From contig NC_135252.1 of assembly GCF_964204865.1 (NCBI RefSeq), positions 22,568,001 to 22,632,000 on the forward strand: a DNA stretch of 64,000 nucleotides, given 5' to 3'. Made by a program: the position numbers and the translations under genes. Below the pieces are notes generated by a model that was given only the letters and a program-made list of their open reading frames with translations, was not told where the DNA came from and made no database searches. This DNA is from Styela clava (Eukaryota). Each line of letters begins with the position of its first letter. The stretch's first letter is position 1. This document shows, piece by piece, positions 20,835-64,000 of the stretch.

Positions 20835-23800
20835 CTAAATTATAAATAATTATTGATACTCGACTAGGTTACACAAAAACAGGTAATTATAAATAATTTA
20901 GGTTTTTAATATTTTATTGGTTTCATATAGAATGAAAGATGATGTAAAATTTTTTTGCCCAATTAAAAGTTAATATGCAATGCTATTACCAAAAAGAACT
21001 TACCAATGGCTTAATATTAAGTTCGTTCCAATCAGAATTATATATTACACCACTCGGTGTGATGTCCAGAATACCATTTTCGTCCATCCGGAGCGTCACC
21101 TTTAGTTTTTGAGTTGATCCTTCTAATTTTGTTTGAGATATTAGCAAGGGCTCAACGCTGTAATCCAGTTTCTCATATACCTTAAAAATGAACAATTTTA
21201 TAAATGCAAACTGAGTTTACATATGGATTGTTTTGATGAATTGTTATTAATGTGCATTCGTTAGAAAAGAACCGTGTGTCTCCTAAAATGATGACCCCTA
21301 TATCAAATTTTTAGATAGGAGTCGTCGGAAGACGTGGAATTTATTCTGAACTTTACGCTCGATATTTCACCCCCGAAGTTGCATTTTCATTCAAATTTAT
21401 AAAAACATATTTTTGTGTAAGGTAACACTTTTATCATTAACGTTTTTTGTTCGATAGGGATAAAAATCGTTCTTAATAATTTAAGTGAACCCCAAAATGT
21501 TTAACATGAAATGTCATGTTCCAATAGAAATCAGGGTAAAATTGACAAATATTGAAGTAATAGCCTTTTATCAAATTCTCAAATACCGGAAGAAACGACG
21601 CTCGCAGTGTCTCAAAGAAAACAAACACACCGTCAACTGCAAAAGTACAAACAATTACAATTTGTAATAATTATTAGTCTCCCAAAGTGTCCAATAAGCA
21701 TATAATATAAAGAATTAAAAATTTGGTTTTGTATAGTTCGGGACAGTGCCACGCTAAATGTGCTTAGTAATCATATAGCCATAAGAGGTCACCGATAATA
21801 GTGGCTCAGCAGTATTTGTCCAAGACAAATACTGGAAAAATTGCACAACAGGTTGCAAGATCTGGCGAACAGGCAAAACCTAAATAACGCACATGACCTA
21901 TTTATGGTTTACAGAACTAAGCAGAAATAAAATAAAATTTCTTCTCTCGCACGCAGTGAAGACGAAAAACACCCGGCTGCTACAGCCGTGTCTTTTTCGG
22001 AACAATAATTATAACATTAAGCCAAATCGCGAATTATTTTTTTATATGATCTTAAAATCAATCCCTTATTCAATTTACAGCTTCCACGCGCATGACTTCA
22101 ACAGGGATCAAATTTTCGCTTTTATCGCCCATTGAATAGTTCACGAAAGCGATTGTTTTAGATAACTAATCACCTTCAAATCATTTGGTGTCTCAGGAAA
22201 CTCGTGAATTTTCTCATTGGGAATTTTTTTGTTCTTTGCCAAGATTTCTTTTCCAGAAACAGATACACTGTGTGGATAAACTTCACTTACTTCGAATTTC
22301 TCCATCTTAAAAGAGACGAAAATACATGAAAATAAAAATGTAAAAACATTTTTATTAGATATTCGATATTGATATGAACATTAAATATCAGCACAGCCTG
22401 GTAAGTACAATCGCTTCAATATGAAATTCATACTAATGATATAGTTTTGCATGGTACTTTATATATATTATCTCCTAATTCAGAAGTGTGTAATCTGCAG
22501 CCCGCGGGCCAAACTCGGCCCACAAAGAAAAATTGGGAGAAGCGAAGCGAATCGAACAACGCATGGTATACAACTAATAACCAAAAAATGTGCCTATAGG
22601 CATTAGAAACCCCGTGTTAAATAAAGATGTGGACCGCGGTTTCACCCATTTAATCGTATCTGGCCCTCCGGCATTATGGGTTACCAACTGCTGGCGTAAT
22701 ATATAAACAATAAAAATTACTTCTTTAGTTTCGAACACAATTCCCGCCTGAATAGCGGCGCCACATGCCATTGCCTCATCTGGATTAATTGACTTGTAAA
22801 ATTTCGATCGGCTGAAAAACTGTTTAAGAAATGCTCGAATTTTGGGAATACGTGAACTGCCGCCAACAAGAATGACGTCATCGATCTTAAAACAAATTGT
22901 TTTATTCATTAAATATTATATAATTTGATATTATGTGGCGCTTTTTGTAATAATTTTTAGGAAATTATAGATTTAATTATTCCAGAAAATGTATTCTAGT
23001 AGTCGAAGCAAAAAGATTTCATATTTCATATATAGGTTTTAATCAATGTGCACTACCAGTCACTATTGATCAAAATTTGACAAGTCGTTATACCTCCTCT
23101 TTTCTTAACTTGTTAGACTCGCAAGCTTCTTTTATAATTTCTTCGACTTTTTCGAACAAGTTTTTATTAATTTTTTCAAACTCATCTCGATTTAGTGACA
23201 ATTTGACTGACTTATTTTCAGATACGATATCCACTTCCGAACTGCAATAACAAAAAGTTATCGATAAATTTATGCAAAATTAAATAAGCTAATTGAAAAA
23301 AAACGTGGCAACCCCGGTAATGTTACTGTAATAATAAATTTAAATAGATACATGCGTTGCGTTTTTATGCAGGAGACAAGGGAGTAAGTGTGATAATGCT
23401 TGTAACACCAACATTTTGTCTTGGAAAATTGATGATGTTTCTCTGCTATTTTCGGATTCGAGTGTAAGCAACATATATTCGCACAAAGACTACTTGAAGG
23501 GGTATAAAATTGCAAATTAATTTCCCTCCTAAATTTGCATACGAACAAAATATAATTTTAAATTGTGGTTGAGGTTTTTGACTTTAAAAACGACAAATAT
23601 GTCAAATGAGTCTTTTTGTTTTTGGATGAAAATGTTGCAAATAACATCTTTAAAATAATCATATTTCCAATCAAATATTCGTTCCTAGTTAGCATATAGT
23701 TTACGAATTACGACAATAAATCATTATCGACAATAAATAAGTCATATTAAATTATCATTCGGTAAATTCGTTTCATTGTTAAAATATCCACTAATTTCTC

Positions 23801-26800
23801 AAAGTATGAATTTGCTTGCTTATAACGTGCATAAGTTATTTTCATAATCTTGCAGTTGTGGGTTTTTTTGATATTATAACTAGTGATATAGCTGCATAAG
23901 AATACAATATTAACATTCGTTTTGTGCAATAGAGCTTCTTTTAGGCCATTGTCGAGTTGAACTATAATACTTAGATCTATTCAACAAAACAAAACAATAA
24001 ACACAATACACTTACTGAGCCTGAAATGCCACAGATAAATTACGTTTTAGCTTTTCACATGAGTTTTTTAGACGAATTAAATTCCTTTTTTCTTCGGTTT
24101 TGATATTGAACTCTTTACCAAAATGTTGAATCAGTTCATAATCTATACTCTCGCCTAGAAAAAAGATGAAAAATTTAATAATAATAATTTACAATTTAAA
24201 CAAATTGTAAATTAATTATAAAAATCTGAGCAAAATGCCCGACTGTCTAAATCAGGGTTTCACAAAATTTTTGGGCCGCTGAACCCTGTATATAAACAAG
24301 AAAACAATCTCGATTTTCAAAATCGGTTTTGTTTTATATAATATATCACGAACACATTCTTATCTGACAATATTTATCAAATATATTTTTGTTTTCACAC
24401 TAAACCGCGTGTGTTTAATTGTTACAAATACCTCCTAGACTGCAGTCTCCATATGACCAAACTATTTGTATAAGTGGGCCATGTATTGTGGCCAAGCTTA
24501 TATCCAATGACCCTCCTCCAAAGTCCAAAATAAATATTTTTTTCTCCTGATTTGCCTGCAATATTGAAAACAAGAATATTAAAATTTAAAGATTAATTAT
24601 CATACCTAGCAAAGCTAAATTTGTTTTAGTTAAATTTCACCATTTTTTCTTCCCTGTTTTAGCAAATTGAAGCAGAAATGCTGCCAATATTACTAAATAA
24701 TGTAAAAAGATGTTAGTGGTATTACCCTATTCATATCGATAACACGCAATTTATATTTTATATGATAACATGGCTATGATAACAAGGCCTATACAATTGA
24801 AATATTATCATATTTTAAAAATAAATTTAAATTTCGTAATTCTTTATCATGACTAAATAGGACTATTAATTGCGGATTCCTTCAGCTAACAATTTGTGAG
24901 ATGTATATGTTCTGTCTACAAAGTTTTACATTTTGTGTAAGAGCAAAATTAAAAACATTCAATAAAGTTTGAATGTTAATGCCTGGTAAATTCAACTAGG
25001 ATAATGAAATTTAAAAAATCCAAAAGAGATATCTTTCAAATAATTTAATGAACGGTTTAGATGTTTAATTTAATCTTTGTAGTATTCATTCGCTAAAATG
25101 TAAACGGGAATAAGCTCATATTCATTTCATGATATTAATAAAGTTGGAAACAATCAAAAAATGTTAAGTAAGGTTAACTATAAAAACATATCAAACCTGC
25201 CCGTCAAATGCATAAGCAAGTGCAGCAGCCGCCGAATCAGAGATCAATTTAATGTCTTCAAAACCTGCAATTTCCCCAGCATTTAAGGTAGCTTGACGTT
25301 GTGCATTGCTAAAACTTGAAGGAACGGAAATAACTGCTCTTTTCACTGATGCATTTAGATGCGATTCTGATAACTTCCTCATCCTTTCTATAATCATGGC
25401 GATAACTTGTTCGGGATGTAACGTCTGTGTTTCAGTTTTTTTTTCATAAGATAACTGTAACAAATTTATTTGTCATTTTTTCATTATAATATGTTTGGTT
25501 ATTCAATCCAAAATATTTATAGAACAATGTTTATCCGTTTTCAGATGGAGGAATTGTCGTAATTTAATCTTATACCACCATGAAATATAATGATTACAAT
25601 TTTGTGATTTTAACTGTATAATAAGAAAGGTTTTGCATATTACTTAGAAATGGTTGAACATCTTTTTATCAAATTATGTGTATAAACTTTTGACTCAATT
25701 TATCTGCTGTATAATTGTAGAAAGTCAAATTTAAGAAACAAATAAAAATTTCAAAAATGATTTGAACAAAAATCATATATGAGTCATTGTCCAAATATTG
25801 GTTTACAATCGATTGACGTAAAATCCTCATCGTTATGACAACCAAACTAAAAATAAAATGATTATATTTGGATGATAAGCCCACCGGAATCTTAATTTGA
25901 TGGGCTTCATTTCCAGTTATCGGGTAGCCGACCATTATTTGAATATTATTCACAACTGGATCATCTGTCAATCTTCCAGCAAGCTGCTTTACATCTGCAA
26001 GAATATTTAAATAAATAAAGACGCGAGAATAGAAATATTAAATTATATTTTCAATGGCCTGCAAACGTAAAAGGAAAACAAAATTGAAGCTAAAAAATAT
26101 CTTTTTTTTTTGGAATGAAATTCACGAGAGAAGTTTGAATAAACGATCTCAATATTGTATTTAAATTGCATAGCTAAGCAAAGTATGATACAGCTGTTTT
26201 AACTGTTTAAAACTAATCGGCCATGACAAAAATATTATTTACAGATAAAAAATTGATAGCAATTGAAACAAATTAAAAATAGATCGACTGTTAAAAATGA
26301 AAGACAAATATGTCGTGTTATCTAATCTTAAGAAACGTTCTAAAAATAACACTTCGTATTACATACGTTTTTAGCATTGTTACACAAGCATGTATAAAAA
26401 AACATCGAAAAACGTCGGAACCCTTTCTTACTATCTCAATACAATCTTTTACAAAGACAGCCTGTGAGAATTGGATTGCTGAGATTTTAGAGTGTATTAG
26501 ATATATTGTACCCATTCAAGCGAAACATTAGATTCATTTCAAATCTAATAAAAAGTATTTATAGTTATCTTTTAAATTGTCCAAGCTGCCCAAGTTTGGC
26601 ATTAAGTGTGTAAGATCAGCTCGAATTAGACAAAAACATTACATATCTACAAATATGAATACAATAAATTTTCACACATAAAATGGGTTGTCGAGGAGCT
26701 AATTAGTAAGTTTTAAAAATATATCTTACTGTAAAAGGTGTTGTCTGGATTAATTGGTGCTTGATGCTTTGCAGATTCTCCAAACAGACGCTCATCATCG

Positions 26801-27218
26801 GTAAAAGCAACGTACGCTGGTGTTAGTCGATTTTCGTGCTCATTTGGGATGATCTCAACCTAGGAAAATGGAATCTATATAAAACTATACAATGTATATA
26901 CTTATCGCAAAATATCAAAATGCCATATAAAGCCTTATAAAAAACATAAACATAATATATAGCATGAAAATAAAATATTAAATAAAAAAATACTACAAAA
27001 ATTGCTTATCAAAATAAAAATAAAATGAAACTACAAATGATGATAAACGTTACAATTTAAATATATTGACAAAAGATATATTAATTTGGCAATGTTTCTG
27101 GAGCCGGTTTAAACGTAAAGTAAATATCTAAGAAATCTTATACCTTTCCATTTATTAATGCACCGACACATACAAAATTCGTCCCAAAGTCGATTCCTAT
27201 GGCTATATCTTTACTCAT
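16375..27218 (-). CDS. Non-canonical Hsp70-family protein B (~830 aa): divergent ATPase domain, eroded SBD-beta, four tandem lid (SBD-alpha) repeats
   Basis: Exons: 27218-27144, 26859-26730, 25994-25885, 25454-25197, 24555-24432, 24154-24016, 23241-23094, 22885-22721, 22305-22174, 21180-21004, then lid pairs 20834-20646/20370-20314, 20229-20074/19845-19756, 19484-19302/18557-18465, 16739-16587/16479-16375. The last exon may instead splice at 16390 to a terminal exon 15955-15926. Motifs [48 protein letters not shown]. No stops or frameshifts in the model. Confidence 0.85.
16974..17700 (-). mobile_element. LINE (CR1/L2-group) 3' end fragment in intron of gene B
   Basis: Minus strand ends AAAATAAACTACTGATACTGATACTG (polyA signal plus short tandem tail), preceded by a stem-loop-like CTCGATAGCCATTACTGGTTTATCGCG. 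5' boundary approximate. Confidence 0.55.
22481..22693. mobile_element. Degenerate hAT MITE
   Basis: CAG...GCAGCCCGCGGGCCAAACTCGGCCC ... TGGCCCTCCGG...ACTGCTG, typical hAT subterminal GGCCC motifs; TSD degraded. Confidence 0.5.
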
Positions 27219-30628: not shown

Positions 30629-43779
<13,151 letters not shown>

Positions 43780-47091: not shown

Positions 47092-50000
47092 ATGGCGGCA
47101 ATTGGAATTGACCTCGGTACAACATTTTCTTGCGTTGCTATTTGCAAGAATGGAATAGTGAGTATAAGATTATTTTTTCGGCGCGTACTTCAAAAAGTCA
47201 AAATCTTGTCTTCAGATTTTCATCACTAGGAGTTCTACAATAAAACTCAGCGTACTTCTTTTCTTTCTTATATATGATTGCTCTACTTCAAACATTTTAT
47301 TTTAGTATACCTCTTCGATATCTTCTATACCTCACTATTTTGGTCAGCCTTTTACATACACCAATATACTTTTAATTCTTCGTACAAAAAAGGTGGTGCA
47401 ACGAAGGAGGTTACTCTAACATCTTTCAGAATTTAAATTCGGAGCACTTTTTATCACGTATGGGGTTATTTATTTTGTCACGTCCGCACTAGCTATCTGC
47501 TCAGCTGAGACCTCAGCAGTGGCCATGATGGTCATTTGTATCAATAAATTTTAACATCCATCTTATGTTTCGTTTTTATTTCTTAATTTTTCCCTTCTAT
47601 TGACATTTTATTTACTGCCTATATACCAATTCCAGGTGCAAATTATACCCAATGAACACGAAAAACGGTTGACACCAGCATATGTGGCTTTTACCGAAGA
47701 GGAAAGATTATTCGGAGACTCCGCAAAACATCAAGCTCCGTTGAACCTAGCAAATACTGTATATAGTAAGTGCAACATTGAAAATAAAACAAACAATGAA
47801 TTATGTTTGAATTATTACCTAATGACGGATTTTATTTTGAACTTTTTTTTCTGAAAATCAAAAAAAGAAATAATATAACAGCACTGATCTTTTCAATAAC
47901 TACAAAAGGATTATACTCGAGTGCAGAAAATATGGTTTAAATGTGTACGTAATTTCTTACTATATCGATATTTCAATTGCGTCTTCGTTTGATCAACGTC
48001 GTATACAGGGTGTCTCAAAAGTAAGTATACACTTTTAATTTTGATTTGCTTTTCAGGTACTCAGCATAGAGCGTTCATTTTTTTCAGGGAACATAGTATA
48101 GATAACCAGTAAAATTTAGATATTGTTTGTATTTTTCAACAACCCACAAAATGACAAGGAGACTAAGCCCAAAAATGAAAAGCAAATTGGTGATTGGCAA
48201 GAAGCATGTAAATCAGTAAGGCAAACTTAGCTCCTCTTTAACAGAGAATTTGAAACTGATTCAGCTTCCTCAAAGCATCCGCTGCATGGTTTTCTTGATC
48301 TTACAGATCAAGTTTCCATGAATTGCGTAATTCTTTGTCGTGAAGTGCTGATTGCCTCAATGTTTTATATGCTTCTTGCCGAACGGCAATTTTCACCCCA
48401 TTTCTTGGGTCAATCTTCTTGTCATTCTGTGGGTTGTTGAAAAATGCAAACAATACCTAAATTTTACTACTTATCCACTATGTTTCCTGAAAAAATGAAC
48501 GCTCTAGGATGAGTACCTGGGAAGCTAATCAAAATTAAAAGTGTATACTTGTTTTTGAGACACCTTGTATAGAGAGCCTAAACAATAAATAATTGGGTCG
48601 ATTCGGAAAACAAACATTTGTAACGATTAAATTCCGTTAGTGTGAAGGAATCCAATGAGTACACCAATTGAAAGTAAGAGTACACTCAAAATAATAATAA
48701 AAATCCTAAGAAGGTCTTATTGCACGCAGTCTCAATTCGTTGTGTAAACGGTAAAGCTTTCAAATACCATTTAAATTAATAAAGATGAATTTTGCGGTGA
48801 TAATCGTTACCAATGCGCGATGAACTAAACTAGTATTTCAGGTCCACCGGTAGCACAGTCCATTTTATGTCTCCAGCAGAGATTTTGTTATTTGTTGATG
48901 TACCCAACATTTTTAGTGACTACATTTTATTTTGCCACGTTGTTTCACCTAAATAAAAATACTTTGGAATTATCTTTTGATTACTCACCATCACCAACCA
49001 CAGTGGCGTGACTGTTATGTAATTTATTTTCATCTTAAATCTGAAAGCGGATGATAGATTTTCACGCTATCGAAGATATTACGTTCTGATGAATTTCCTT
49101 TGGATCATCTCTGCAAATTATATTATTCATAAAAACACGTTTCTATTTTGTTACCAGTTAATACATGTTTACTGTTTTTGCTCCACTGTGTAAATAGACT
49201 TTTTTAAGTCTATTTAAAACATTTACGAAATTAACGAAAATGAGATGTACCTACTTATGCTGCAAATATGGCTTAGTCAGGGATAACTTCCACTTTTGAA
49301 ATCATTAGCTAAGTTTTTTATTTTTAAAGCTGATATTTTAAACCAATTCTTTTTATACTTCTACAGACATCAAACATATAATCGGAAGGTTATATAACGA
49401 TCAAAAATTGAAACAAGACAAAAAATATTTGGGATATACTATCGAACCTGACAGAAATGGATATTGCCAAATACCAGTAAGAAATTTTGCGATTCTCTGA
49501 TATCAATTTTTTGTAATATCGAATAGAATCTGCTTGAAATAAATGTAGATTATATTGTCATTGTAAAATACATATTCTATTGTCGTTTTAAAAAGCCTCC
49601 ATTTTGGCATCACTGAGAAATTAGGAAAAGATGAAAACCTTTCCGTATTTATTAGTTACCATAATGCTTGACGATGCATTAATTTAATGATTTTTGAGGT
49701 TATATTACCTAGTTGTCCTTTAGCGCAAAAAGTTTTCTCTCTCAATACCTGGCTTTGTCATTGCGCTCAATTTCAGGTATAAGTTCAATTTTTTATTCTA
49801 GAATTCGGGAATTTTTATTTGAAGAAGCATAACAAATGTAAAGTTTTTGTTTGCATATTGGACAAACGAGCCAAATTTTTCTACCTACCAAATTTTCAGG
49901 CTTTTAGATTCCCATATCTACTTGAATTTTTAGATTTGATTCAAAATTAAGTAAATATTGCTACAATTCTCTGGACATAGCATCAAATTTATTACTTTAG

Positions 50001-53000
50001 GATCTATCATTTATATTGACCTAAAAATCACTTTCAATATTAAAAGTGAAAAACTCGCATACTGGTATTTCAAAATTTCACTTTTCCAGATATCTAGCTA
50101 CGGAAAGCAAGTAGAATTATATCCAGAACAAATTACGGCAATGACAATTGTTAAAATGAAAGACATAGCAAAAGCACACGTTGAGGAAACAGTATCTAGA
50201 GCTGTTATTTCCGTCCCCGGATTTTTTAACGAGGCACAGCGCCAGGCTACAATAAACGCTGGTAGGATGGCTGGCCTTGAAGACGTCAAGCTCATAACCG
50301 AACCAATGGCATCAGCGCTGGCATATGGGCATGATAAACAGGTTAAACAAAATGATAAACAAACAATTTTATAAAAAATTATATCAAAAAGGCAAAATAT
50401 TGTTATGTTATTAATTAATATCACACAATTTTCATTCTCGCCTAAAAATTGTAATAGCGTGTTTACTGATGATGAAATGGAAATTTTTGATTGGATTTGG
50501 TAAACAGAAATTTTCAAAATTATAAATTTTATTTTTTATATTAAATATATGTCATTTCTTCAAAACTTCAAAGGCAATGATAATTTATAGTGAAATAAAC
50601 CATAATGTATAATACAAAATTTGGAAACGCTTTTAAGGATATCAATTGCAATTTTTTATTGACACACATTTTTTCTCTTTCAGCTAAAAACAATTGAAAA
50701 CATTTTAATTTTTGATTGTGGTGGAGGGACAACCGAAATAAGTCTTGCAAAAATAACAAGCAAAGATGTTAAAATTATATCTACGTTTGGAGAAAATTTC
50801 GGGGGTCAGTTTATTTTCAAGTTGTTTGATTTTTCTTTCAATATTTTTCATTAATTTGAGCTTATTTTATGAGTATGCGAAAAAAGGCTCATAATCAAAT
50901 ATTAATAAGTTGCAAGGAGAGCGGATTAATTTAGGGTTTTCAAAAAGGATGAAGATCGCAAAAAAATACCAATGCTTTAAAATATTATTCGTCAATGAAA
51001 TTATGTTTTCCTTCTTGTTATTCGGCCATAATTTAATCGTATCCAATATATCCAATATATTTTGTTTTGTTGAATCACGATTCAGATTCAGATTCAGATT
51101 TTTATTTTCGTCGTGCATGAAATATTGTACAAACAAAATTGATCAAAATATATAACAAAACATCAATTAAAATATACTGGAATACAATATTTGCGCAATT
51201 GACGAGGAACCGCGAGAGACTACTAAAGTCATCGTGTCAGCGACACCGTGTTTGCTAAGATAAGCAGAAGACGTCAATAACATGAAATAATTAATTTTTG
51301 AAAATAGAGTGAATACAATTTGGGAAATACAAATCAAAACGACGATGGATCACAATAACCATTGTCTTGTACTAGTTACGATATTCATCAGCAAACAAAT
51401 ATGGATTATTAGAGGATAGGGTAACTTTTTTCTGTGAAAATATTTGAAAGTGATAAAGAGTTTATAAAAAAAATGCCTACATTAAAAAATAGGTTTATCG
51501 CGAAAGAATGGATTCGTTTATAATTTTTGTATTCGAAAGCTTGCGAATTATGGATCTTTTACGCAAAGCCCACGCCGCTAATGTGGAATTTGACAAAAGA
51601 AAAAGAAAAACTGTCGTGTATTTATTTTGCAGTTGCGCACAAAGTATCTCACAAAGAGTCTCTTCCTTTATTAATTTAATTGTGCGTCGACAAAAGAACA
51701 TTACTACGAAATGTTACGACCATAAAAAGTGTTTAAACTTTTGGATATCTAGTTTTGATTCGTATTTTTGCGATGTTAATAATTATACAAATTTGATATG
51801 TTCTTGCAACACCGGCTTTGCTTTATCACAATGCCACCACCAAATTTTATTTTCAAGATATCAACGTTAGAGAAATCCCTAGATCTGCTAGAGAATATCA
51901 AAACAATAATAATTGATTGTACAGTGATACCTCGATAGTCAACCAGTTCATTCGAGTCAAAAATGCTGCGGTATTCCAACTGAAATTAGGATCTCAAATA
52001 CCCGAACCGAGCGGAGCTCGCGGCCGAGAGAAATGACGCCAACCGAAAATGAGCTCGATCGATCCTGGCATGCCGTTGGAAGCTTCCGAATCGTCAATTC
52101 GTCCTAATATTAAGCGTTTAGTGAAGCAAAAATGTTTCCAAATATCACTAGGAAAAACATGTATCAAATGTTCTATTTTTATTTTATGCTGCAATATAAC
52201 ATCAAATTACCTTCAGCTGTATTGATGCAGTTGTTTATTTTTGTTGATGAAAATCAATAGATATCATGCGTGCGGGCCACTTACTCATCGGTACTCGACT
52301 GATAAAATGGCCGGCGATAGCAAATGGGTTCGCCCCACCTTGTTTTAAATGAATAATCAACATATGTGTGATAAAAAAGATATTTTAAATTTTGTATGTA
52401 TCTAGGCCAGTGGTTCCCAAACTTTTTCGAGTTGGGACCCACTATTTATTACCACAGCTTATGGCGACCCATTTAAAGTTTTATGACATAACACAGAACA
52501 CAGCAATGGCTAATCATCGCTAAACTATCGTGTTTCCTCGAAAATAAGACCTGGACTGAAAATAAGACATAATTTGAATTTTGAAAATGATTTTAATTAA
52601 ACCCTACCTTTGAAATTTAAAATGTGTGGGAGAGGAAGGGTTCAATGACCTGAGTGAGATAAGGTGAAGATTGCACCACTATTCAAGATTACCACAATTA
52701 TGATATTTGACACTTGATTTTTGTATAGAAAATACAAATAGAAACAATGGATGTCGAATTTTATATAATGTTTATTGAAAAATCTCGTGATCTTCTACAA
52801 TGTAAGGTCATTTTTGATAAATGAACACAAAAGACCTCTTCCAAAGAAACATAATGTTATTCTTCAAAAGAAAATAAATCTAAATCCTATTTAAATTTAG
52901 GGTGAAACACAGTAAGAAGTGCTGTCCAGTGTACAAAACTGCTGTGCGTAAAAAAGCCACATGGTCATTCTTTGTGTAGCAAATTTTTGTTCCTTTGAGA

Positions 53001-56000
53001 AGATCGTAAAAAGTACAGATTAGAATTTCACAGACAGAACTTTCACATATAAGAATTTAAATTCAATTTAATTTAATTGGTTTTTTTGAAGATTTGCGTA
53101 TTCGAGTCGCCACCGATCCTAAAAACCAGTGTAATTAATCAAAGCTTTCCACATCTTTTCACGACCCATTAAGATTCCTTTTGCGACCCACCAGTGGGTT
53201 GCGACCCATAGTTTGGGAACCGCTGATCTAGGCTATGTGTATTATTTCTTTAGACTATGTGCATAGACACAACTGATAAAAAGAACATTGGCTCATTTAT
53301 CTTAGTCTTTTCAAACAGGTGATGATTTTGACAACCGATTGGTTCTGAAGTACGGTAAAGACTTGGGAATTGAAATTCACGATAAAAAAGCAATAACTAG
53401 ACTGAGAAACGCTTGCGAAAAAGCAAAACAAAGTCTGTCAGCAGCTTCTCGCGCTCGGTAAGCTCATTTATTGCTAATAATTGCTAACAAAAAATGAATT
53501 TTATGATTGGTGCTTGTCCAAATACTTGAAGCATGTAATGATTTTAAGATCTCATTCATAAAGTCTGATAAATATTGGTCCCAATAGTAGGTAACAAACG
53601 AAATGCAAATTCAATTAGGTATTCTCAATGTTTTGCAAGAAATATTTCTGTTCTAGTTTATGTCTGATATATGTCAAACAATTTAAATGCGATTTTGTTA
53701 TTAGGAAACATCATTGATATTTTAAAATCCTTCAGACATAATAAAGCTGAATTGTAATTTATTTTAATTTTATTTTTCAATTAATTCAACTTTTTTATGT
53801 GCAGGATAAAAGTTGACAATTTATACAATAATGAGCCGTTTGAAAGCACTATAACACGAGAAGATTTTGACAAAATAAACGAGGAATTGTTTGAAAAAGT
53901 TACTTCCATTGTTCAAAAAATGTCGAAGTTTTTGACAAAGAATCGTCATAAGGTTTCCTTTAGTGTTCGTCATTCTTTATTTAAAAGAATGTTTATAATT
54001 TTAATCGAAATAAATAATTAATTTTAGAATTTTCATTGCTATATAATTCTATCGCTGTTAAACGCTAATATTAGAGAAAGTTGCCTCCGACGTTTGTAAT
54101 CATACTTCTAAGAATAGCTTACCAGATCTATATTTTTTATTATAAATATATTAGGTTGATGAAATAATTCTCATCGGAGGATCAACGCGTATCCCCAATA
54201 TACGGAACATTCTTCAGAATTCATTTAACGTCAAACACTTGAACAGAACAATTAACCCAGATGAAGCTGTTGCATACGGTGCAGCAGTACATGCGGCTAA
54301 TGAATTTACTAACTGCAAGGTATTTTATTGGTTAATAGTTTTGTTGCGAAAATAAGCAGAGTATACAGACTTGTCCACGGAACGTATTTTTCCGTCTCAT
54401 TCCGTCTAATACTGTGGCAATTTTTACCCGTTCCACTCATCCCCATCAATGAAACGTTTCGTATAGAATTCCTATTTCCAACTCTGGAAAATCACCTAAA
54501 TAAGGAATCTATGTATAGGTGTCCCAACACAAAATAAAAATAAACAATAGATGTAAACAGCTCTTGGGAAATAAAAAAACAACTGAATTTGACGTTTAAA
54601 TTGCCATGAGAAGTAAAATGTCTGCTGTCCCATTCCATCTCATGAAAGACGACAATCCATGGCCATGTTTGAGAATACATATATATATAGTATTACGCTA
54701 AACATATAGTTAACAAATGTTGTATAGTGGAATGCCGTTTTGAAATAATTCCAGAAATAAAATATCGTATTTGTGAAAATTGTTTTAAAATTTGTTTGCA
54801 AATATTGATTTTTAAATTATTCTTCTGTAACTCTTACTTAGTCTTTTGTACTTTAGAAAATAGTCCAGGTTCGAGAGATGACTGCTTTGAATAATAGTAA
54901 TACAGTACCTGAAAATAAAAAACGTAAAATAGAAGAGACGAGTCAAGCAAAATTGACGGAAATGGTATGTAAATGGGCTACTCAAGTATAAAGATAGTTA
55001 CGACGAGTAAATAATGTTTATGTTAAGTTCTGAAATATTTTACATGTTGTAATGTTTTGGTGGTGCTCCCGAAGTATGTGCACCAAGATGGCTCACAACT
55101 TGAACATACTATGTGTACCAGGTTTGGGTTCAGGTTGTGCGCCATCTTGGTGCACATGTTTTCGAAGCGCCGTTTTGGTTAGTATTAGCCATTAATATTT
55201 CTGAAATTTGAAAAATATTTTTTTTCTTAAAACTACATTTTCACAATTTTGAAAAGACAGACGGATATGTTTTATTTATTTTGCCGAATCAGAATATTAG
55301 CAAACTATATAGTTCTCCTGGTATACCGTGTACTAAACCGAAACATTAATAGCGAAGGGGTTAGTCTGATAGGTTAACGCAATGAAAACCGCTTTTATCT
55401 ATGACAATTTTTCTTTACCTCAAATATTTGCCCTTGTTTCAGTTGCAAACCTATTCCTTGCTTGTTGAATAATTCATCTTTTTGTTTTTCTCCAGACTCA
55501 AAAAGTGCTGGAGTTTGATAAACATGACGAAATGCTCAGGGAAGAAAGTAATGCACGGAATAATCTCGAGAAATACGCTTACAGTACCAAGAAAAAGGTT
55601 CACACAGATAAATACAAAGACAAGTTATCTGCTGAAGACAAAAAAGGAATTTTCCATGAATGTGATCTAGCGATAACATGGCTTGAAACGAATAAAGTAA
55701 GTATTCAAATGATTCACAACATGCTTACTAATGCTTTCAATATACGCCGAAAGTTTTTATTTATAAAATTATGCCGCAGAGAATTTCTTGTATTTTACTT
55801 TACGTTGGCTTGAAGCAGAGTTCATTAATCTATTGTCGTCAGAAGCATGGAATTTGTACAAATCGCGGTGTTTGGTAACATGGTTTAGAGGTATAAAATG
55901 TTTTTTTTTTTATTTTGAAGCGGAAAAAAGTAGTAGAAAAAAAACTTGAAGAACTGAAGCAATATTGCGAAGCGATATTCGATGGAAAGTCAGCAACAAA

Positions 56001-59000
56001 GGTCGAAATTAGATTATTTTTAGTGCTTGATTCCCTACATTACTATTATAACATACGTTTTTTCATAGTGGTAAAATGTGTAAAAATTGATTCTACGTTG
56101 TTGATTTAAGTTGGCACCATTAAAAAATCGAAAACTAAAAATTATTTAATCGACAATATTCCTATTGGCAGGATAAGAATTACATAATTGGTTACGACCA
56201 CCTAACTGTTTCTGAGTGATTAGGTAATCGGAGAATTACAGAATCCTCGACTGCGAATTAATTTAATCGTGTCATTTTTAAATATATTGATCTTCACAAA
56301 ACATGAACTTATTTTAAATCCATGATATATATGTTGATTACATTTGAATTTGATGGTAGATGTTACTCTTTCAGACGCTTATTACAGTTTTTATTTTTTC
56401 AGTTTTAGCAACATCGAAGCAAATTTAGTTTTTTATATAAATAATTTTTAAATAATTTTTCTAATTCAGCAAGTGGTAATGAGGTCACCATATGTGAGAT
56501 CGGAGAAAAGTCCAAAAGGTATCGTTACAGGAAAAATGCAGGTGAGATTACAACGTGCAAACAATATTTGTCGTCTTAGATCACTGGTTCTCAACCAGTG
56601 GCCATGGCCCACCGCTGGGCTATAGATACATTTTCATGTGGGACACAAGCATTTTACAAAAATGTTTATTGAAAAGTTTAGTTTCATTTGTGTTAATATA
56701 GTCAAATTTTAATTGTAGTTGCAATGAATGATGCTGCTGCTTTTCATTATAATTATGAAAGTTAAAGTATTTATTTTTGCGAAAATAGTCTTGATTTTCT
56801 TGTAGTTTTTCCCTTGCATGAGAAAGCTAGTGGGCCACAGAATGTTTATGCAACAAAAGTGGGCCACGAAAGAAAAAAGGTTGAAACACTCCCGTAGTGT
56901 TTGTTCCAGTTAGGTCATTATTTCATTCCGATATTTCTTAATAGTTCTATTACGAGTTCGGGGATGGTCTGTGTTAGCAAAGTACATATACCCCTTTCTA
57001 TAAGTTTCAGTCTCTTTACAAAACTTGATGTGAGGCAGGTGACCAAAGTAGTTATACCTCCATATTGGTACACGCACTTCTGGAGCGCCCTTCATATAAT
57101 TTTGGGAAAAGCAGAACTTTATATTTGACCCTTTATAAATCTTTACCAAACAGTCAACTCGTGCAAATAAATCTACTGAACAAGAACTGGTGAAATTTAA
57201 CGCAATCAATGATCTTCATAAATATGTTCAAAGTGTTCAATCCCATTCAATATTCGGAAAACTTACGGAATTTATGACGTCGGACATCAAAAAGAAAATA
57301 GATATCAAATGTCGTGAAATAGAGCAGTTTTTTAACGCAAGCCAGGTATGTTTTCCTCGCTATATCACCACTACCCTTCTAATGTATTTATTTTACATGG
57401 GATAATGGCGTTTATTCGCTGCAAATATGATTGTTGACTCTTATAAATAATTTAAAAAGTAATATAATTATGGAAAAATATATATTCCTATTTATTGTTT
57501 TGTGTTAAATGTTTAGGATATGGAAGTCAAAAAGATAAATGGCAAAAAAATGGAATTAGAAATAATTGTAGAAAGTATACTGCACAGATTGCAGCATAAC
57601 CAGGTGAATAGCATTTTAAATAGTTTATTTTTAACCTTGTCGCTCTCTTCATATGTGCTCAAGCAGTTTCCTGTTATTAACAAAGATATAAAACACCTTA
57701 TAAATATATGAGAAACGTTTATAGAATTCAACAAAGAAAGTTTCCACCTATTTTTATTATCAAAATTTTTCCATAAATATTTATCTCAATATTATGTGTT
57801 CCAAATCATAAATGAAATTATTTCTGAAATGTAGCAAATGTACGTTAGTTTATTTAATTTCGTCCGAATGGTTTTGATTTATAGATTATTCTTTACCGAT
57901 CTTTAAAACAAATACATCTGAGAAACAATTGAAGCATAGAAAATCTTTAAAATACCGTATTTTCCGGCCAATAAGTCTACCCAGTGAATAAGACGAGGCC
58001 CGTTTTTGAGCCTGAAAAATGGATTTTCGCATATATTCTGCCGATAAGACGGTTAGTAAAATCGCATCAACATCGTAATCTCAAATTACCATGCAGAGGC
58101 TTTTGGGCGGTCGCCGCCTTTGCGCATTGGTTAAAATAGCCTATAATAACTTTTTCTTGTAGCGTAATATTCAATCCATAACAATTACGAGAATTCGAAC
58201 TGTCTTTCAATTTAATTGTGTTCAACCCAACTCGCGTTTGCGTCCACCATATAAGAACATTACCTATCTAAAATAACACGGCGATGATAAAAACGTGGGG
58301 ATGCTATCGCCAAAGGTATTTGGTATTTTATGAATTGAATAATAAGGCGACACCAAAAAAATTATCATACTCGCCTAATAAGACAACCCCCAAAATCAGG
58401 CCAAAAATTTGGGTTATTCGCCGGGAAATACGGTATAGTTCCGAAAATAAATTTTATATATGTTTATATAATCTTATCACAGGAAGTCGACAAAAAGAAG
58501 AACGACGAGTACGTAAAACTTCTCAAATATATTTCTTATCTCAGGAAGCCAGAGGAAGGACAAAAACCAGGCAATTTTACATTTCAGTACATGGATGACA
58601 TTAAATCCGCGTGCGATGAAACAGAACAATGGCTTAAAAGTAATTATGTACGTTTCATTCAAGTCCGATAGTACTAGAAGACCGTTGTAATAATTTTGAA
58701 TAGGTTACCATTATGCCCAAATTTATCTAATGACAATTCGCATTTTTTGGGGCGAGAGGTGCCCTAGAGTGAAATCTGTTTATTGTTATTTCAAATAATA
58801 GTAGTCATTAGTTATCGATTTTAATCGGTAAGTATGTTGATAGGTATTTGTCTGTATGTCTGTCTGTTTGTCTGTTAGATGCACGCGATATCTCACGAAA
58901 GCTAGATTGAATCTGCTCCAGATTTTGCATGTGCATTCATCTTATCTCGGACCAGAAGCCTATTGATTTTGGGCGAATTATGTCGTATAATTAGCGAGTT

Positions 59001-62000
59001 ATCAATCAATTATTGATATAGTGATCTAGATTTTTGTAAAGCGAGAGAATTTTGAGACCCGCCGAGTGTGTGTGTGCGATGCGCAGTGCGCAAGTTACAA
59101 GAGCGGATGAATCGAAACTGCAGTTTCTGTTTTGGGGGATCCCCCAACTATCGATCGATAAGTCTTCGGTTTCCAACCAATATTCTCGTTCACTATTCAG
59201 TTTTTATCTGTACATGTTGTATGAAATCGTAAATGCCACCGTACAAAAATATTTGTATCTCATGACTAGTTTTAAATCTAAAATTACATGCAGTTATGAT
59301 GAGACATTGCCATAAGCAATGCAAAAAAAATCGATGTTAGGTACTTCAATTGTTCAAGCTTTAAATTATTGTTTTAGAATTCGGTATCAGTGGAAATAAT
59401 CAAGTCCAGATACACGGAATTTCAATACTGTGTTGATAAAATCAAACGGAGATATGAAGAATTCGAAATGGTTAGAGTTATGATGATGAATATCTTGAAA
59501 AATAGCTCATACAAGACGAATTGAAACAAATACATTATTGGGTCATCACTTCAACGATTTCCGTAATTTTTTCTGAAGTGACAAGAGGTTGAATATTTGA
59601 TGTTCATTTTTTGTTATGATACTCAATCCATAACAACAGCCTAAAATTTCGATCTAAATTTTTTGCAATGGAGGCGCGCCTTGTATTTCTTTTCTTTAGT
59701 TCATGTTCATTCGCGCCCCATCATATGAAAATATTTATATTGTTTAAATGTTTTGGTTTTGAATCAAATGAGTCTTTTATTACAGAAAGAAAGGGACAAA
59801 GAAGTGAAACGTGCCGAAGTTTACAGTAGTTTCAAAAAGTTCACCCGTAAAGTCATAAAATATACTAATTCCGAAAAAGGTAAAAACGATATAGATGATG
59901 AATATCTAAGAAATATGGAACATCAATGTGTAGAAACAACAAATTGGATTGAAAAGAATTACGTAAGTAATAATTTCACTAGGAAAAATAATTTGTATTC
60001 CAAAATTAATTTTATTTTATATTAAACTTTATTCACGATAACTAATTATTTTATTCAACATCAAAAATTTTAAACAAAAATAAGTAATAGGATATGTTTG
60101 TGTATTTTTTGTGATATTAAAGTATGTTTATAATTATTTTCAGCATGTAATATCACCAAGAAAAATGAATTCTGAAGAACTTAAACTACGAACAAAGATA
60201 ACTGAAATCTTGAGAGGATTGAAAGCTAGCCAAGAGGTAAGAACCAAAATTTTTTAATACCGCAACGTGAACGATAATACCCAATAATAAATTTATTTAG
60301 TATTGATAAATTTCCTACAGTCTGCTCACCATATTTCTAAGTATACCTTTACAGTATATAGACCTATAATAATTGGATGAAATAACAGCAAAAAAACATA
60401 TATTTTTTACACGAAGTGGTAAATACTGAGAGAATTGCAATTTTTTATTATTCAACTATAAAATAATTGTTATTTTTTTTATGAATTTAAAAGATCAAAT
60501 GTTTGTAAAGAAACCTATAACGAGATTATCGGTCGGAGACCGAAGACGTATCGATCGACCGCGAAAAAAAATAAAAAAAAATAATTAATTAATTAATTAA
60601 TAACTCTCTAATTATACGATATAATTGATCCAAAATCAATAGGCTCCTGGTCCGAGATATGATGAATGCACATGCAAAATTTAGAGCAGACCTTGCTTTC
60701 GTGAGATATAGCGTGCATCTAACAGACAATCAAACAGACAAAGAGACAAATAACTATCAACATACTTACCGATCTTAAAAATGATAAGTAATAATATTAG
60801 TCGTACTATAAACTAGTCGTCTACTATGAGGAAAATTCAAAATTTATTCCTTTCTTTTGGGACGGTTTGATGAATGCACATGCAAAATTTAGAGCAGATT
60901 CAACCTCGTTTTCGTGAGATATCGCGTGCATCTAACAGACAATCAAACAGACAAATACCTATCCACATACCTACCGATCTAAAAAATGATAAGTAATAAT
61001 ATTAGTCGTACTATAAACTAGTCGTCTACTTTGTGGAAAATTCAAAATTTATTCCTTTCTTTTGGGACGGTTTGATCACGGTTGTTTGCAAGATATGAAT
61101 GTGGCAGTAGTCCGTGACAGTATAGATTTCAGATGGAAAGATAAATTTCGAAAAAAGATATCATGACCTGAAAATATCTTTCTAAGAATTTTCAGAGTTA
61201 TTAAAACTGATATCGTATCTGTTTTTCATTTGCCTTCAATAGAATTATTTTCTAAAAAAGAGATTTTTGTATTCCATGAAAACTTCAGATGTTCACGGCA
61301 GAAATGCAACTTCGTAATCAAGAATACAAGAAATTAATGGATTACATCGAAAATATTTTGGACTTCGTTGCTACTAAAAAGGGGAATGACAACATAACTA
61401 ATGAGTATCTTCTAAAAATAAATCAACGATGCACTGTAACGCGAGAATTGTTGGAGAAATATGGCGTACGAACAATTTATAAATCTTGTTTAAGTCTGAT
61501 TCTAGATTTTGTTACTTTGATTTAAAAAAATTATGATTATTGTTTTTTGTTTCAAAACAAAACGGAATCGATAAACATAAACCACATTCCTGTAACTTTT
61601 TGCGAGAAAAAATTATTAATAATTTCCTTTATCCTTTATAATGGTGTATATGTAAATATGTAAATAAAATTGTTTATAATATGAAAAGTTACGCATATTT
61701 GGTGAAATATGTTTCAGGATAAACTTACCAGAAACGAAATTACTGTAAAAGCAGATCAACTTGAATTAAAAATTAATGAAATCTGGACAAAAATGCAGGA
61801 AAGAAAACAGGTAAAATACTAATGCAGCAATGCACTAAAGTTGATTTAAAACACAGTTGTTTTCAAACAAACACAAATTTTATTAAATTTTGCTAGAATT
61901 AAGTTATCACAGCAATATTTCCGAATAAATGATTGGAGAAAGGAGTTTTGGTAATTGAATTGCATAATTTACAGCAATTGCTGCATCTGCAAACTTGTAG

Positions 62001-64000
62001 GGTTAGGTTGAGTGACTTGCTTTTTTTTCACAAAGTTAAGAATAAATAGTATTATTATCATTCGTAGATAGCAACTGATGAAGAAAAACGGTGTCGTGAG
62101 GCATATGATAAATTAACAACCTATATTAATGGCATGATCAAATATATTGATTCCGAACGAGAGAACGACTGTATATCTGTACAATATTCTGAAAAAGTAA
62201 AGCGTCAGAATTTGGAGTGGAAAAAGTGGCTTGATACTAATTACGTAAATATTACTTATTTTTCTTATATTATTTCTTTTAAAAAAATAGGGTTATCACA
62301 ACTTTCCGACTATGAAACTTGTCTTTTATTATTATATTATTATGACGTTCTATTTAAAAATATTATAATTTTTATTATTTCCCAGTGATAACGATTGGCA
62401 TACAAATCACCATTATTTTTCGACGTTTTTTTTTTTAGAATTATCTCACTTCGGACGAAATATTTTCAGAAAAATCCAGATTAGAATCGGAAAATAGTAA
62501 AGTTCTAATTGACATAAAAGCAAGAAAAAAGGTAATTTTTAAATCTTCTTAAGGTGTGAAATAAAAGTTTAATACAGATCAAAATTGTTTAAATTTAATT
62601 TGTCTCACGCTTATCAAATATTTATTCAATAAATGAGACACATATATACAATATTAACACAATAATTAAACTTGCAAAACTGGCATCCATTTTCGTTTCC
62701 ATTTTCAATAGCAAATTGTTTTTTTTGGTATTTCTAAAACTTCCACTATTTGGATTATAAAGCAACCAAGAAAATTTTATAAAGAAATTTATATTATTCA
62801 AATATAATGTAATATATGATATTTTTGTACTTATAAATATTAAATATGAACAAAGATAACATAAGATATTTTATACAAAATTATATTTAATGCAAACAAT
62901 GTGGTTATTACAATTATATAAACTGTATATTCTTATGATTTGTGAAGGCTGAGATGGCTGAAAAATTAGCCAAAATCAAAAACAAAACGGCTATAAACAA
63001 TTTTATGAAGTGTATATCTGACGTGGAATCCTGTAGATATTTTTATCCGTACGAATTGAATGCGTCTGATAAAAAAGAAATTGAAGAAAAATGCAAATAT
63101 TGGAAACAGTGGCTTTCTGAATCTTCCGTAAGTTTGAGTTTTAAATTGTATAAGAATTTGTTAATATTCAAATTCAACCTAAATATACTAATTTTTCAAT
63201 TGCTAACAGAGCCCTTGTATTTTCTTTGCAAAGATATTGTGAATTTTTCAAATTATATTAAGGATTGTAACAGCCTATTATTTAATATGTTCTTTAATCT
63301 CTTGATATGTTCTTTGACTTTCGTAAATGCAATTTTATTGAACGGTTATCTTGAAATATCAAATTAAATTGATTAATTTTCAATGTCGCTTATGAAAACT
63401 CCATTAACCGTAGTTCAACCTGAAACATAATAACGTGTATTAAAAAAATACCAAAGACAATGATTGTCATCAATTATACAGAAATATTTCTCTTCGGATC
63501 ACATAGAAGCATCTCAAATTGAACTGGAAGACTTTGCTCAGATAATTTTTAACAGATTAGGTGAACGACAACAGGTAATATTCTAAATGTGTAGTACACA
63601 AATGAAAATATAAATACATCATGTCATAAATATATATTTATTTTTTATATAATTTTTCTTTTACATACATTTATATAAATAAAAAATGAGGATAAGTTTT
63701 CGTTTTCATGACTTGTAAATGTGTGGCTTATTAAAAATTAGGTTTTAAATCATGAATTTCAATATATTTTTATAATATTTTTTTGTCCATGCAATAAAAG
63801 CAATAAAATTAGATTAAAATCTGAGCTGCTAATTTTCAGCACCCGCTAACCAAAAATACTATGAGTTGAACTGTTTCTCCGAAACCAAACCAAATGAAAT
63901 ATTCCATGTTTTATTAGCTTGAAGTAAGAAAGCAACGACAAAAACAATTGAAAGAAGCAGCAAAAAATCTTGAAACTTATATTGAAGATGTTAAACAATT
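47092..64000 (+). CDS. Non-canonical Hsp70-family protein D (>1090 aa, 3'-partial): ATPase domain, SBD-beta deleted, NLS-like linker, at least 8 tandem lid repeats
   Basis: Exons: 47092-47157, 47636-47765, 49367-49476, 50090-50341, 50684-50804, 53319-53457, 53805-53952, 54155-54319, 54857-54964, 55496-55696, 55921-56001, 56470-56541, 57154-57345, 57517-57603, 58483-58647, 59378-59470, 59786-59962, 60144-60236, 61289-61465, 61718-61810, 62068-62244, 62439-62531, 62948-63127, 63482-63574, 63918->end. All GT-AG; frame open throughout. Motifs [49 protein letters not shown]. Confidence 0.88.
48006..48567. mobile_element. Tc1/mariner-family deletion derivative with ~170-bp TIRs (intron 2 of D)
   Basis: TA|CAGGGTGTCTCAAAAGTAAGTATACAC ... 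GTGTATACTTGTTTTTGAGACACCTTG|TA; relic transposase N-terminus from ~48151 ([32 protein letters not shown], frameshifted). Confidence 0.85.
51079..51300 (-). mobile_element. LINE (CR1/L2-group) 3' end fragment in intron 5 of gene D
   Basis: Minus strand AATAAAAATCTGAATCTGAATCTGAATC tail, with upstream stem-loop ACGATGACTTTAGTAGTCTCTCG. 5' boundary approximate. Confidence 0.55.
52408..53225. mobile_element. hAT (Charlie-like) MITE containing a nested pogo/Tc2-type MITE (52528-52912)
   Basis: CAGTGGTTCCCAAAC ... GTTTGGGAACCGCTG with perfect 8-bp TSD ATCTAGGC; inner TA|TCGTGTTTCCTCGAAAATAAGAC ... GGGTGAAACACAG|TA. Confidence 0.85.
55062..55171. mobile_element. Short palindromic member of the GG..CC MITE family with 8-bp TSD
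   Basis: GGTGCTCCCGAAGTATGTGCACCAAGATGG ... CCATCTTGGTGCACATGTTTTCGAAGCGCC flanked by GTTTTGGT (55054-55061, 55172-55179). Confidence 0.8.
56582..56886. mobile_element. hAT MITE, right end interrupted by GG..CC MITE
   Basis: CACTGGTTCTCAACCAGTGGCCATGGCCCAC ... AAGTGGGCCACGAAAGAAAAAAGGTTGAAA. Confidence 0.6.
56886..57089 (-). mobile_element. Copy of the GG..CC MITE family (intron of D)
   Basis: ACTCCCGTAGTGTTTGTTCCA ... TTGGTACACGCACTTCTGGAGCGCC. Confidence 0.7.
57955..58433. mobile_element. pogo/Tc2-type MITE
   Basis: TA|CCGTATTTTCCGGCCAATAAG ... TTATTCGCCGGGAAATACGG|TA; internal AATAAGAC motifs. Confidence 0.85.
58808..59190 (+). mobile_element. HINE/DINE-1-like element, copy 2 (intron of gene D)
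   Basis: TTAGTTATCGATTTTAATCGGTAAGTATG...(GTCT)n...ATCGATCGATAAGTCTTCGGTTTCCAACCAATATTCTCGTT; reverse complement of copy 1 with a longer middle. Confidence 0.72.
60519..60996 (-). mobile_element. HINE/DINE-1-like element, copy 3 (60519-60791) plus partial duplicate (60868-60996)
   Basis: Same subterminal repeats and CAGA tract as copy 1; the partial copy is part of a 208-bp tandem duplication. Confidence 0.7.

Follow-up and report, generated by a model that had tools for sequence, protein, structure and literature searches.

The stretch of DNA that we analyzed, hereafter the window, comprises 64,000 nucleotides of the 377-Mb genome of Styela clava (C3 (NC_135252.1):22568001-22632000; positions without the prefix C3 are those of the window). 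It belongs to a region of C3 (19.2-22.75 Mb) with at least dozens of Hsp70-like matches that contain introns, 73 of 478 candidates having been scored. Genes A, B and C of the window are on the minus strand, and gene D, which starts at 47092, is on the plus strand. In gene B (16551-27203, minus strand), the two SBD-beta exons have shrunk to 44 and 59 aa and precede four lid units (21004-22305); the gene also carries the changes E175 to D and T204 to S. In gene C, a 5.9-kb intron, whose longest ORF has 147 aa, separates exons 7 and 8 (34805-40686). Copies of a high-copy interspersed repeat are located at 1350-1660, 58800-59150 and 60590-61100. Exons 1-8 of gene D (47092-54319) encode an NBD of 377 aa, and RNA-type contigs cover exons 2, 4, 6, 7 and 8, the last of which spans 54155-54319. 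These are followed by an intron (54320-54856), a 108-nt exon (54857-54964), a second intron (54965-55495) with an interspersed repeat at about 55020-55170, and a first lid (SBD-alpha; 55496-56001) composed of the exons 55496-55696 and 55921-56001. The RNA nature of runs X1 and X3 is our guess, none of the listed runs being recorded as RNA.

The initial annotation had read 54857-54964 as a phase-0 exon of 36 aa that stands in place of the SBD-beta exons 9 and 10, and our results bear this out. The translation agrees, and the exon is flanked by an AG acceptor and a GT donor, with phase 0 at either end. The exon span of 131 aa in the canonical gene is reduced to 36 aa in D, in agreement with an RNA-type contig. 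This contig, number 14 of run X3 (2,048 nt, depth 22), is spliced across introns, with six pieces listed; window positions 54153-54317 are found at 1123-1287 of the record and 55495-55631 at 1397-1533. Thus, counting the shared AG/G joint letters, exactly 108 nt lie between exon 8 and the lid exon, which leaves no room for SBD-beta. That these letters include the 108-nt exon itself is indicated by a difference at 54904, 49 letters from the piece end (54855). Run X1, which comes from another study, covers 54904 as well, and run X4 has no piece listed at the junction. The one RNA-type difference listed within the exon is synonymous. Moreover, the 36 aa are identical (36/36) in RefSeq P0002 (XP_077966897.1, 541 aa) and in P0123 (XP_039268066.1), a single protein of 1,351 aa from a second annotation of the species whose NBD differs from that of D at 6 of 377 residues. 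The exon is present as a single copy in the genome.

Neither flanking intron contains a remnant of SBD-beta, as had been noted by eye: profiles of exons 9 and 10 score there at the level of shuffled sequence (59-86 of 100 shuffles score equally). As a control, the same profiles detect the shrunken SBD-beta exons of gene B, for which 1 of 100 and 0 of 100 shuffles score as well. SBD-beta is absent from both the genome sequence of D and the transcript contig, and the deletion is real. The peptide cleft of Hsp70 sits in SBD-beta. The earlier claim that D cannot bind clients in the canonical manner therefore holds.

The proposal that the exon is a fusion of the 5' end of exon 9 to the 3' end of exon 10 stands as the simplest reading. 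Using profiles built from 38 exon-9 matches and from the exon-10 matches of the cluster, with p values from shuffles, we find that both ends match weakly: the first 11 aa (54857-54889) resemble the interdomain linker (p 0.024), and 54941-54964, which includes the positions equivalent to I512 and M515, resembles helix A (p 0.027). The middle 16 aa match neither profile (p 0.19 and 0.45). Two candidate placements of the KKRK stretch within this part, as a remnant of the beta-3 motif of exon 9 (p 0.19) or, following MAFFT, on beta-8 (p 0.45), are not significant and were rejected. Judged by the same profiles, the fusion is more evident in the short exons of paralogs than in that of D itself. A second 108-nt exon matches at its start (p 0.006) and end (p 0.0002), as does a 78-nt exon (p 0.0006 and 0.003); 36-nt exons correspond to helix A alone (p 0.023 and 0.0006), and the 72-nt exon of the sister genes of D matches at its start (p 0.003) and not at its end (p 0.11). 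Helix A thus persists even in exons of 12 aa, with a 3' match in six of the seven short exons tested (p 0.0002-0.027). At the DNA level, the exon of D shows no significant similarity to five other short exons (p 0.16-0.84). Most simply, the 108-nt exon would be a fusion of the 5' part of exon 9 and the 3' part of exon 10 that arose through a deletion across intron 9.

Loss of SBD-beta extends to other genes of the cluster. The 1.26 Mb searched around Hsp70 matches, to which the counts of lid arrays refer as well, contain 49 cluster genes with exon 8. Both SBD-beta exons are present in 34 of them, four, including B, have degenerate pairs, and 11, including D, have lost SBD-beta and retain one short exon or none, so that SBD-beta is lost or eroded in 15 of 49 genes. 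Apart from the exon of D (RNA-type) and the 78-nt type (RefSeq P0283), the short exons are splice-site predictions. In NBD trees the degenerate and single-exon genes form one clade (UFBoot 100; 96/95 under a mixture model), and D is the sister of a pair of genes with 72-nt exons (97/97). Gene B represents an intermediate state of the same SBD-beta decay. Gene 22489159, in which a linker exon was not found, groups with the full genes (98/95; AU p 5e-67), which implies that SBD-beta was lost at least twice independently. The mixture model rejects a single origin of the six single-exon lineages tested (p 0.002), and LG+G4 does not (p 0.089); the group in this test was named after the tree had been seen, and gene conversion could mislead it. 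Gene 19381385, of whose NBD exon 8 alone was found, was excluded from the trees, and gene 19355076 has a disrupted lid. In many cluster genes, full-length ones included, the linker-docking residue R171 in exon 4 is replaced by G, Q, S, E, A, C or K.

Downstream of the first lid, gene D continues with a 24-aa spacer exon (56470-56541) and with lid repeats 2-8 (57154-64000), each encoded by a phase-0 exon pair: repeat 2 at 57154-57345/57517-57603, repeat 3 at 58483-58647/59378-59470, repeat 4 at 59786-59962/60144-60236, repeat 5 at 61289-61465/61718-61810, repeat 6 at 62068-62244/62439-62531, repeat 7 at 62948-63127/63482-63574 and repeat 8 from 63918 onward. A further 6 kb or so beyond the window (C3:22632001-22638070) contain repeats 9 and 10, Ser-rich exons and an 11th lid unit at the end of the protein. 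Thus, D is predicted to be not a shortened Hsp70 but a protein of 1,561 aa with about 11 lid bundles in tandem. From exon 8 on, each of the 24 exons checked is open, in phase 0 and bounded by AG/GT ends. Ten lid-type exons were scored with a profile built without D, of which nine exceed 200 of 200 shuffles and one exceeds 193 of 200. When the PDB is searched with the repeat profile, in which 3 of 32 rows are first lids, Hsp70 lids rank first. A phmmer search of RefSeq P0128 (XP_077967110.1, 990 aa) against the PDB gave no significant match, and Pfam finds no signalling domain in D. With the repeats as query, the best ESM Atlas match scores 0.84, in HYOU1_C/HSP70 clusters, which we regard as a lead only. 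Three related Ser/Lys-rich exons lie upstream of the last lid unit (C3:22635591-22636374).

RefSeq divides D into P0002, which ends shortly after the spacer exon with its last exon inside an interspersed repeat near 56945, and P0128, which contains the same repeat exons as our model. The contigs of X1 and X3 continue from the first lid into repeat 2. RNA-type support reaches this repeat, and the later ones rest on open exons and annotation; no RNA-type cover was seen beyond 61175 in three runs, which we do not count as a sign of silence. Between the first-lid exon and repeat 2 (55697-57153), the X3 contig has 168 nt, compared to 153 nt in the two modelled exons, and a different junction is longer by 5 residues in P0123. 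The extra 15 nt in the contig could be a microexon of that length or an insertion in one allele.

The number of lids varies from 1 to 28 among paralogs. The sister genes of D have 26 and 28 lid matches, gene 22389049 has nine (RefSeq P0086, five isoforms), gene B has four, and most full genes have one. The near-identical sister genes are at C3:20328054-20367059 and 20538656-20584268; the first lid is duplicated in one of them and was not detected in the other. P0131 (XP_039268132.1, from another annotation) is a full gene with SBD-beta that carries eight additional lids; in the genome stretches fetched, nothing closely matches its repeat part, and P0131 may be a haplotype-specific gene or a fused model. 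The divergence between P0123 and D is unevenly distributed: 371 of 377 residues are identical in the NBD, identity drops to 54 of 64, 39 of 55 and about half in later repeats, and P0123 has three extra units that are related to repeat 3. Similarly, the X3 contig differs from the genome at 10 of 700 letters in the NBD and at 32 of 186 letters in repeat 2. As far as these sequences go, the lid array varies between haplotypes, and the NBD and the 36-aa exon do not. The depth of DNA run X10 among the contigs listed, about 9-12 over the repeats (55419-64000) compared to about 17 over the NBD, is what two haplotypes with divergent arrays would produce. Between the 72-nt sister copies, dN/dS is 0.18 for the NBD and 0.43 for the repeats (Fisher p 0.01). 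These ratios, which apply to the sister pair and not to D itself, point to purifying selection on the NBD in this pair; positive selection on the lid repeats was not seen, 0.43 being below 1.

The NBD of D matches PF00012 with an E value of 7.6e-120 over residues 3-370 (Pfam). Thirteen of the 15 ATP-site and hydrolysis positions are identical, including the equivalents of K71, E175, D199, T204, E268, K271, S275, G339, R342 and D366, and the other two changes, R171 to K and E231 to D, are conservative. D is therefore likely to bind ATP. An alignment-based AlphaFold model of D has a pLDDT of 87 and a pTM of 0.84; a single-sequence prediction of P0002 (pLDDT 36) was unusable. In the model, helix A is continuous with helix B in a single helix (407-447), and residues 378-381, in the part that weakly matches the start of exon 9, form a strand at modest pLDDT. 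Over about 490 residues, its NBD and lid superimpose at 2.4-3.1 A on ATP-state Hsp70s and on Sse1 (fold Z about 50), for example on 5e84_A, an ATP-state Hsp70 (Z 49.2, 496 residues, 2.5 A), and on 2qxl_B, Sse1 (Z 48.4, 492 residues, 2.4 A). The ATP-state pose of the monomer is partly circular, since the alignment consists mostly of canonical Hsp70s. The survival of helix A fits the finding that its residues L507 and M515 pack on the NBD in ATP-state DnaK (PMC5240922).

The first lid of D has N435, E438 and Y442. The N-x-x-E pattern is present in the first-lid match of 13 of the 15 genes with lost or degenerate SBD-beta and in none of the 44 later repeats scored; the two without it are 22489159 and 20334949, the first match of which is a later repeat. 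Other lid positions differ little between first lids and later repeats (0.28-0.31 versus 0.23 identity). Mutations of N572 and E575 in Sse1 impair nucleotide exchange (PMC4664246), and N435/E438 of D may be their counterparts, judged from the motif rather than from a residue alignment. Two Hsp110-like matches carry N-x-x-E as well. The canonical lids of 24 of the 34 full genes also have it, and it may thus have been inherited for docking of helix B or for the dimers that Hsp70 forms in the ATP state. The matching acceptor A-R/K in subdomain IIB, on which such a lid would rest, is found in 22 of 28 full genes and in none of nine clade genes, a count that leaves out five clade genes and six full genes. 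Binding of clade members to canonical Hsp70 would accordingly be one-way. The loss of the acceptor is a single event in a single clade, and the later repeats do not count as independent cases.

In a predicted complex of D(1-503) with the canonical NBD encoded in the genome, which scores 0.77 compared to 0.55 for the best of three controls, the two NBDs are placed face to face, and lid residues 431-442 contact 274-276 and 295-301 of IIB, so that N435, E438 and Y442 are positioned on this subdomain. Contacts agree between runs in at least 90% of cases, and the pLDDT of the partner is at least 89. Of the solved pairs, 51 of 78 microbial and 71 of 105 eukaryotic ones attain the score mark, as do 2 of 108 and 2 of 126 mismatched pairs, respectively. 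The geometry, with NBDs facing and the bundle on IIB, is that described for Sse1:Hsp70 (PMC4753570). Like complexes have been solved (3D2E, 3C7N) and close relatives pass this comparison, and the score may therefore reflect structures already known to the prediction method and indicates likeness rather than binding.

Our preferred reading, put forward tentatively and with somewhat less than even confidence, is that D, an expressed offshoot of Hsp70, is a non-chaperone, Hsp110-like regulator of Hsp70 carried on a variable helical rod. D lacks the client pocket, which an exon fusion by deletion across intron 9 would have removed; it probably binds ATP, and its first lid (helix A/B) would dock on its own NBD in the ATP state. 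D would then grip subdomain IIB of a canonical Hsp70 in the manner of Hsp110 and act as a nucleotide-exchange factor or regulator of ordinary Hsp70s, and some ten additional lid repeats, variable and predicted to form the rod, could serve as a scaffold or in targeting. This reading leaves the later repeats and their variability unexplained. Alternatively, D may be an ATP-switched scaffold or sensor that is independent of other Hsp70s, whose lid rod binds diverse ligands (for instance microbial molecules, self/non-self molecules or a cell structure) and is swung or released by the NBD. Repeat number differs among paralogs and haplotypes, the divergence of P0123 and X3 is concentrated in the repeats rather than the NBD, and a lid can be a binding module, as in Ssb (PMC5123055). 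However, the repeat dN/dS exceeds that of the NBD yet stays below 1, a signalling domain is missing among the Pfam matches, and the N-x-x-E pattern of the first lid is not accounted for; we consider such a scaffold unlikely.

A nuclear function of D had been suggested on the basis of the putative NLS octapeptide at 54908-54931, whose KKRK (54917-54928) does fit the monopartite pattern K-(K/R)-x-(K/R), one of the published ones (K(K/R)X(K/R) and K(K/R)RK; PMC11269297). In that case KKRK would function as an importin-alpha signal, for which the exon was retained, and D would be a nuclear derivative of Hsp70. KKRK lies at the end of a loop (384-400) predicted to be disordered and exposed, of pLDDT below 50 with few alignment rows, it is unchanged between the D haplotypes, and D lacks the basic stretch that is present in IIB of the canonical copy. 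However, the pattern also occurs in 11% of 36-mer shuffles, and 1.8% of them contain four basic residues in a row; the complete identity of the exon in P0123 is expected at the rate of the NBD (p 0.56); and eight of the nine other family proteins checked have four-basic runs elsewhere, within lysine-rich repeats. Most cluster genes lack the IIB basic pattern and have gained no new one (4 of 50 match), and KKRK is found in none of nine other short exons, those of the 72-nt sister genes included. KKRK cannot explain the SBD-beta-less family. That it drives nuclear import as a feature of D only seems doubtful, and that D as a whole is to be understood as a nuclear Hsp70 derivative seems decidedly unlikely. 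A literature search found nothing on the position of the NLS in Hsc70, and an ortholog of D in another species was not found. Even less probable is that D is a decaying duplicate, in which deletions and unequal crossing-over produced the fused exon and the repeats without selection for either. The tandem cluster does contain recent copies, the truncated-looking gene 19381385 and the disrupted lid of 19355076, and RNA-type cover, whose absence we do not read as silence, was not seen past 61175. However, the reading frame is intact in all 24 exons and spliced contigs come from two studies, the ATP-site residues are preserved, the sister pair shows purifying selection, and helix A and N-x-x-E have been retained repeatedly. 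Finally, we regard it as barely conceivable that the missing SBD-beta is an artefact of assembly or annotation. The split of D in RefSeq does show that annotation is imperfect here, and X10 could derive from the very sample that was assembled; against this, the spacing in the X3 contig, the same junction in a second annotation and comparable losses in ten other genes, one of them in RefSeq protein P0283, all argue for a real deletion.

Compared to known systems, D shares with canonical cytosolic Hsp70 (HSPA8/HSPA1 type; PF00012), from which the cluster descends, the NBD with its ATP-site residues, helix A, the first lid and, by a weak match, the linker start; it differs by the absence of SBD-beta and of the EEVD end, by about 11 lids instead of one and by a changed IIB acceptor motif. 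With Hsp110/Grp170 (Sse1), D shares N-x-x-E and, in the models, a compact ATP-state NBD with a helical bundle, a face-to-face NBD contact and a bundle that would rest on IIB of Hsp70. Hsp110 keeps a beta-sandwich with long insertions, which is absent in D. The nearest matches of D are canonical Hsp70s, with an identity of about 42-47%, and identity to Sse1 is 27-28% in structural alignment; this argues against D being of the Hsp110 lineage, the trees containing no Hsp110 row. In Ssz1 and HSPA13 it is the lid side that is lost; in D, by contrast, the beta-sandwich is gone and the lid is present in many copies. Like D, Ssz1/HSPA14, HSPA13 and HSPA12 have an Hsp70 NBD without a normal substrate-binding domain, but they are old, separate subfamilies; regulatory roles are described for them (PMC3879978), and HSPA12 has expanded in tandem in bivalves (PMC10939072). 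D is a real variant within the known Hsp70 family and neither a canonical chaperone nor an established Hsp110; if it functions at all, it does so in the manner of an atypical Hsp70.

Few proteins are as conserved as Hsp70, and where the family has expanded in marine invertebrates this is usually taken to mean more chaperone. In this cluster, 15 genes have lost or eroded SBD-beta, and several carry long lid arrays that are uncharacterised or split in RefSeq. As natural deletions of SBD-beta they test what NBD and lid do alone, and they could show how exchange factors like Hsp110 arise from canonical Hsp70. In the S. clava genome, 42 Hsp70 genes have been reported, 32 of them on one chromosome, with clustered ones upregulated at 12 and 2 C (PMC7540406); the text portions and one supplement file of that study describe neither domain loss nor lid repeats. 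We found no literature on tunicate Hsp70s that lack SBD-beta or have lid repeats, in a search whose coverage leaves subscription journals largely outside. Taken further, the ascidian Hsp70 clade might have re-invented Hsp110 by dropping the sandwich several times, with a retained surface for opening canonical Hsp70 in one direction only and with lids, up to 28 of them, that form a polymorphic rod and target exchange to variable partners, similar arrays having arisen separately in other eukaryotes; we consider this extension improbable. When 1.84 billion representatives were searched for multi-repeat proteins, most of the top matches looked up were from S. clava. The repeat profile also matched Naegleria proteins and ARM/villin-headpiece proteins, which we discounted as generic helical repeats. 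Two predicted proteins combine Hsp70 parts with lid arrays: MetaClust P0169, placed outside the clade (AU p 0.02, on a long branch), has an NBD and three lids without SBD-beta, and ENA P0089 has a full SBD and five lids. If the gene models hold, both are possible cases of convergence.
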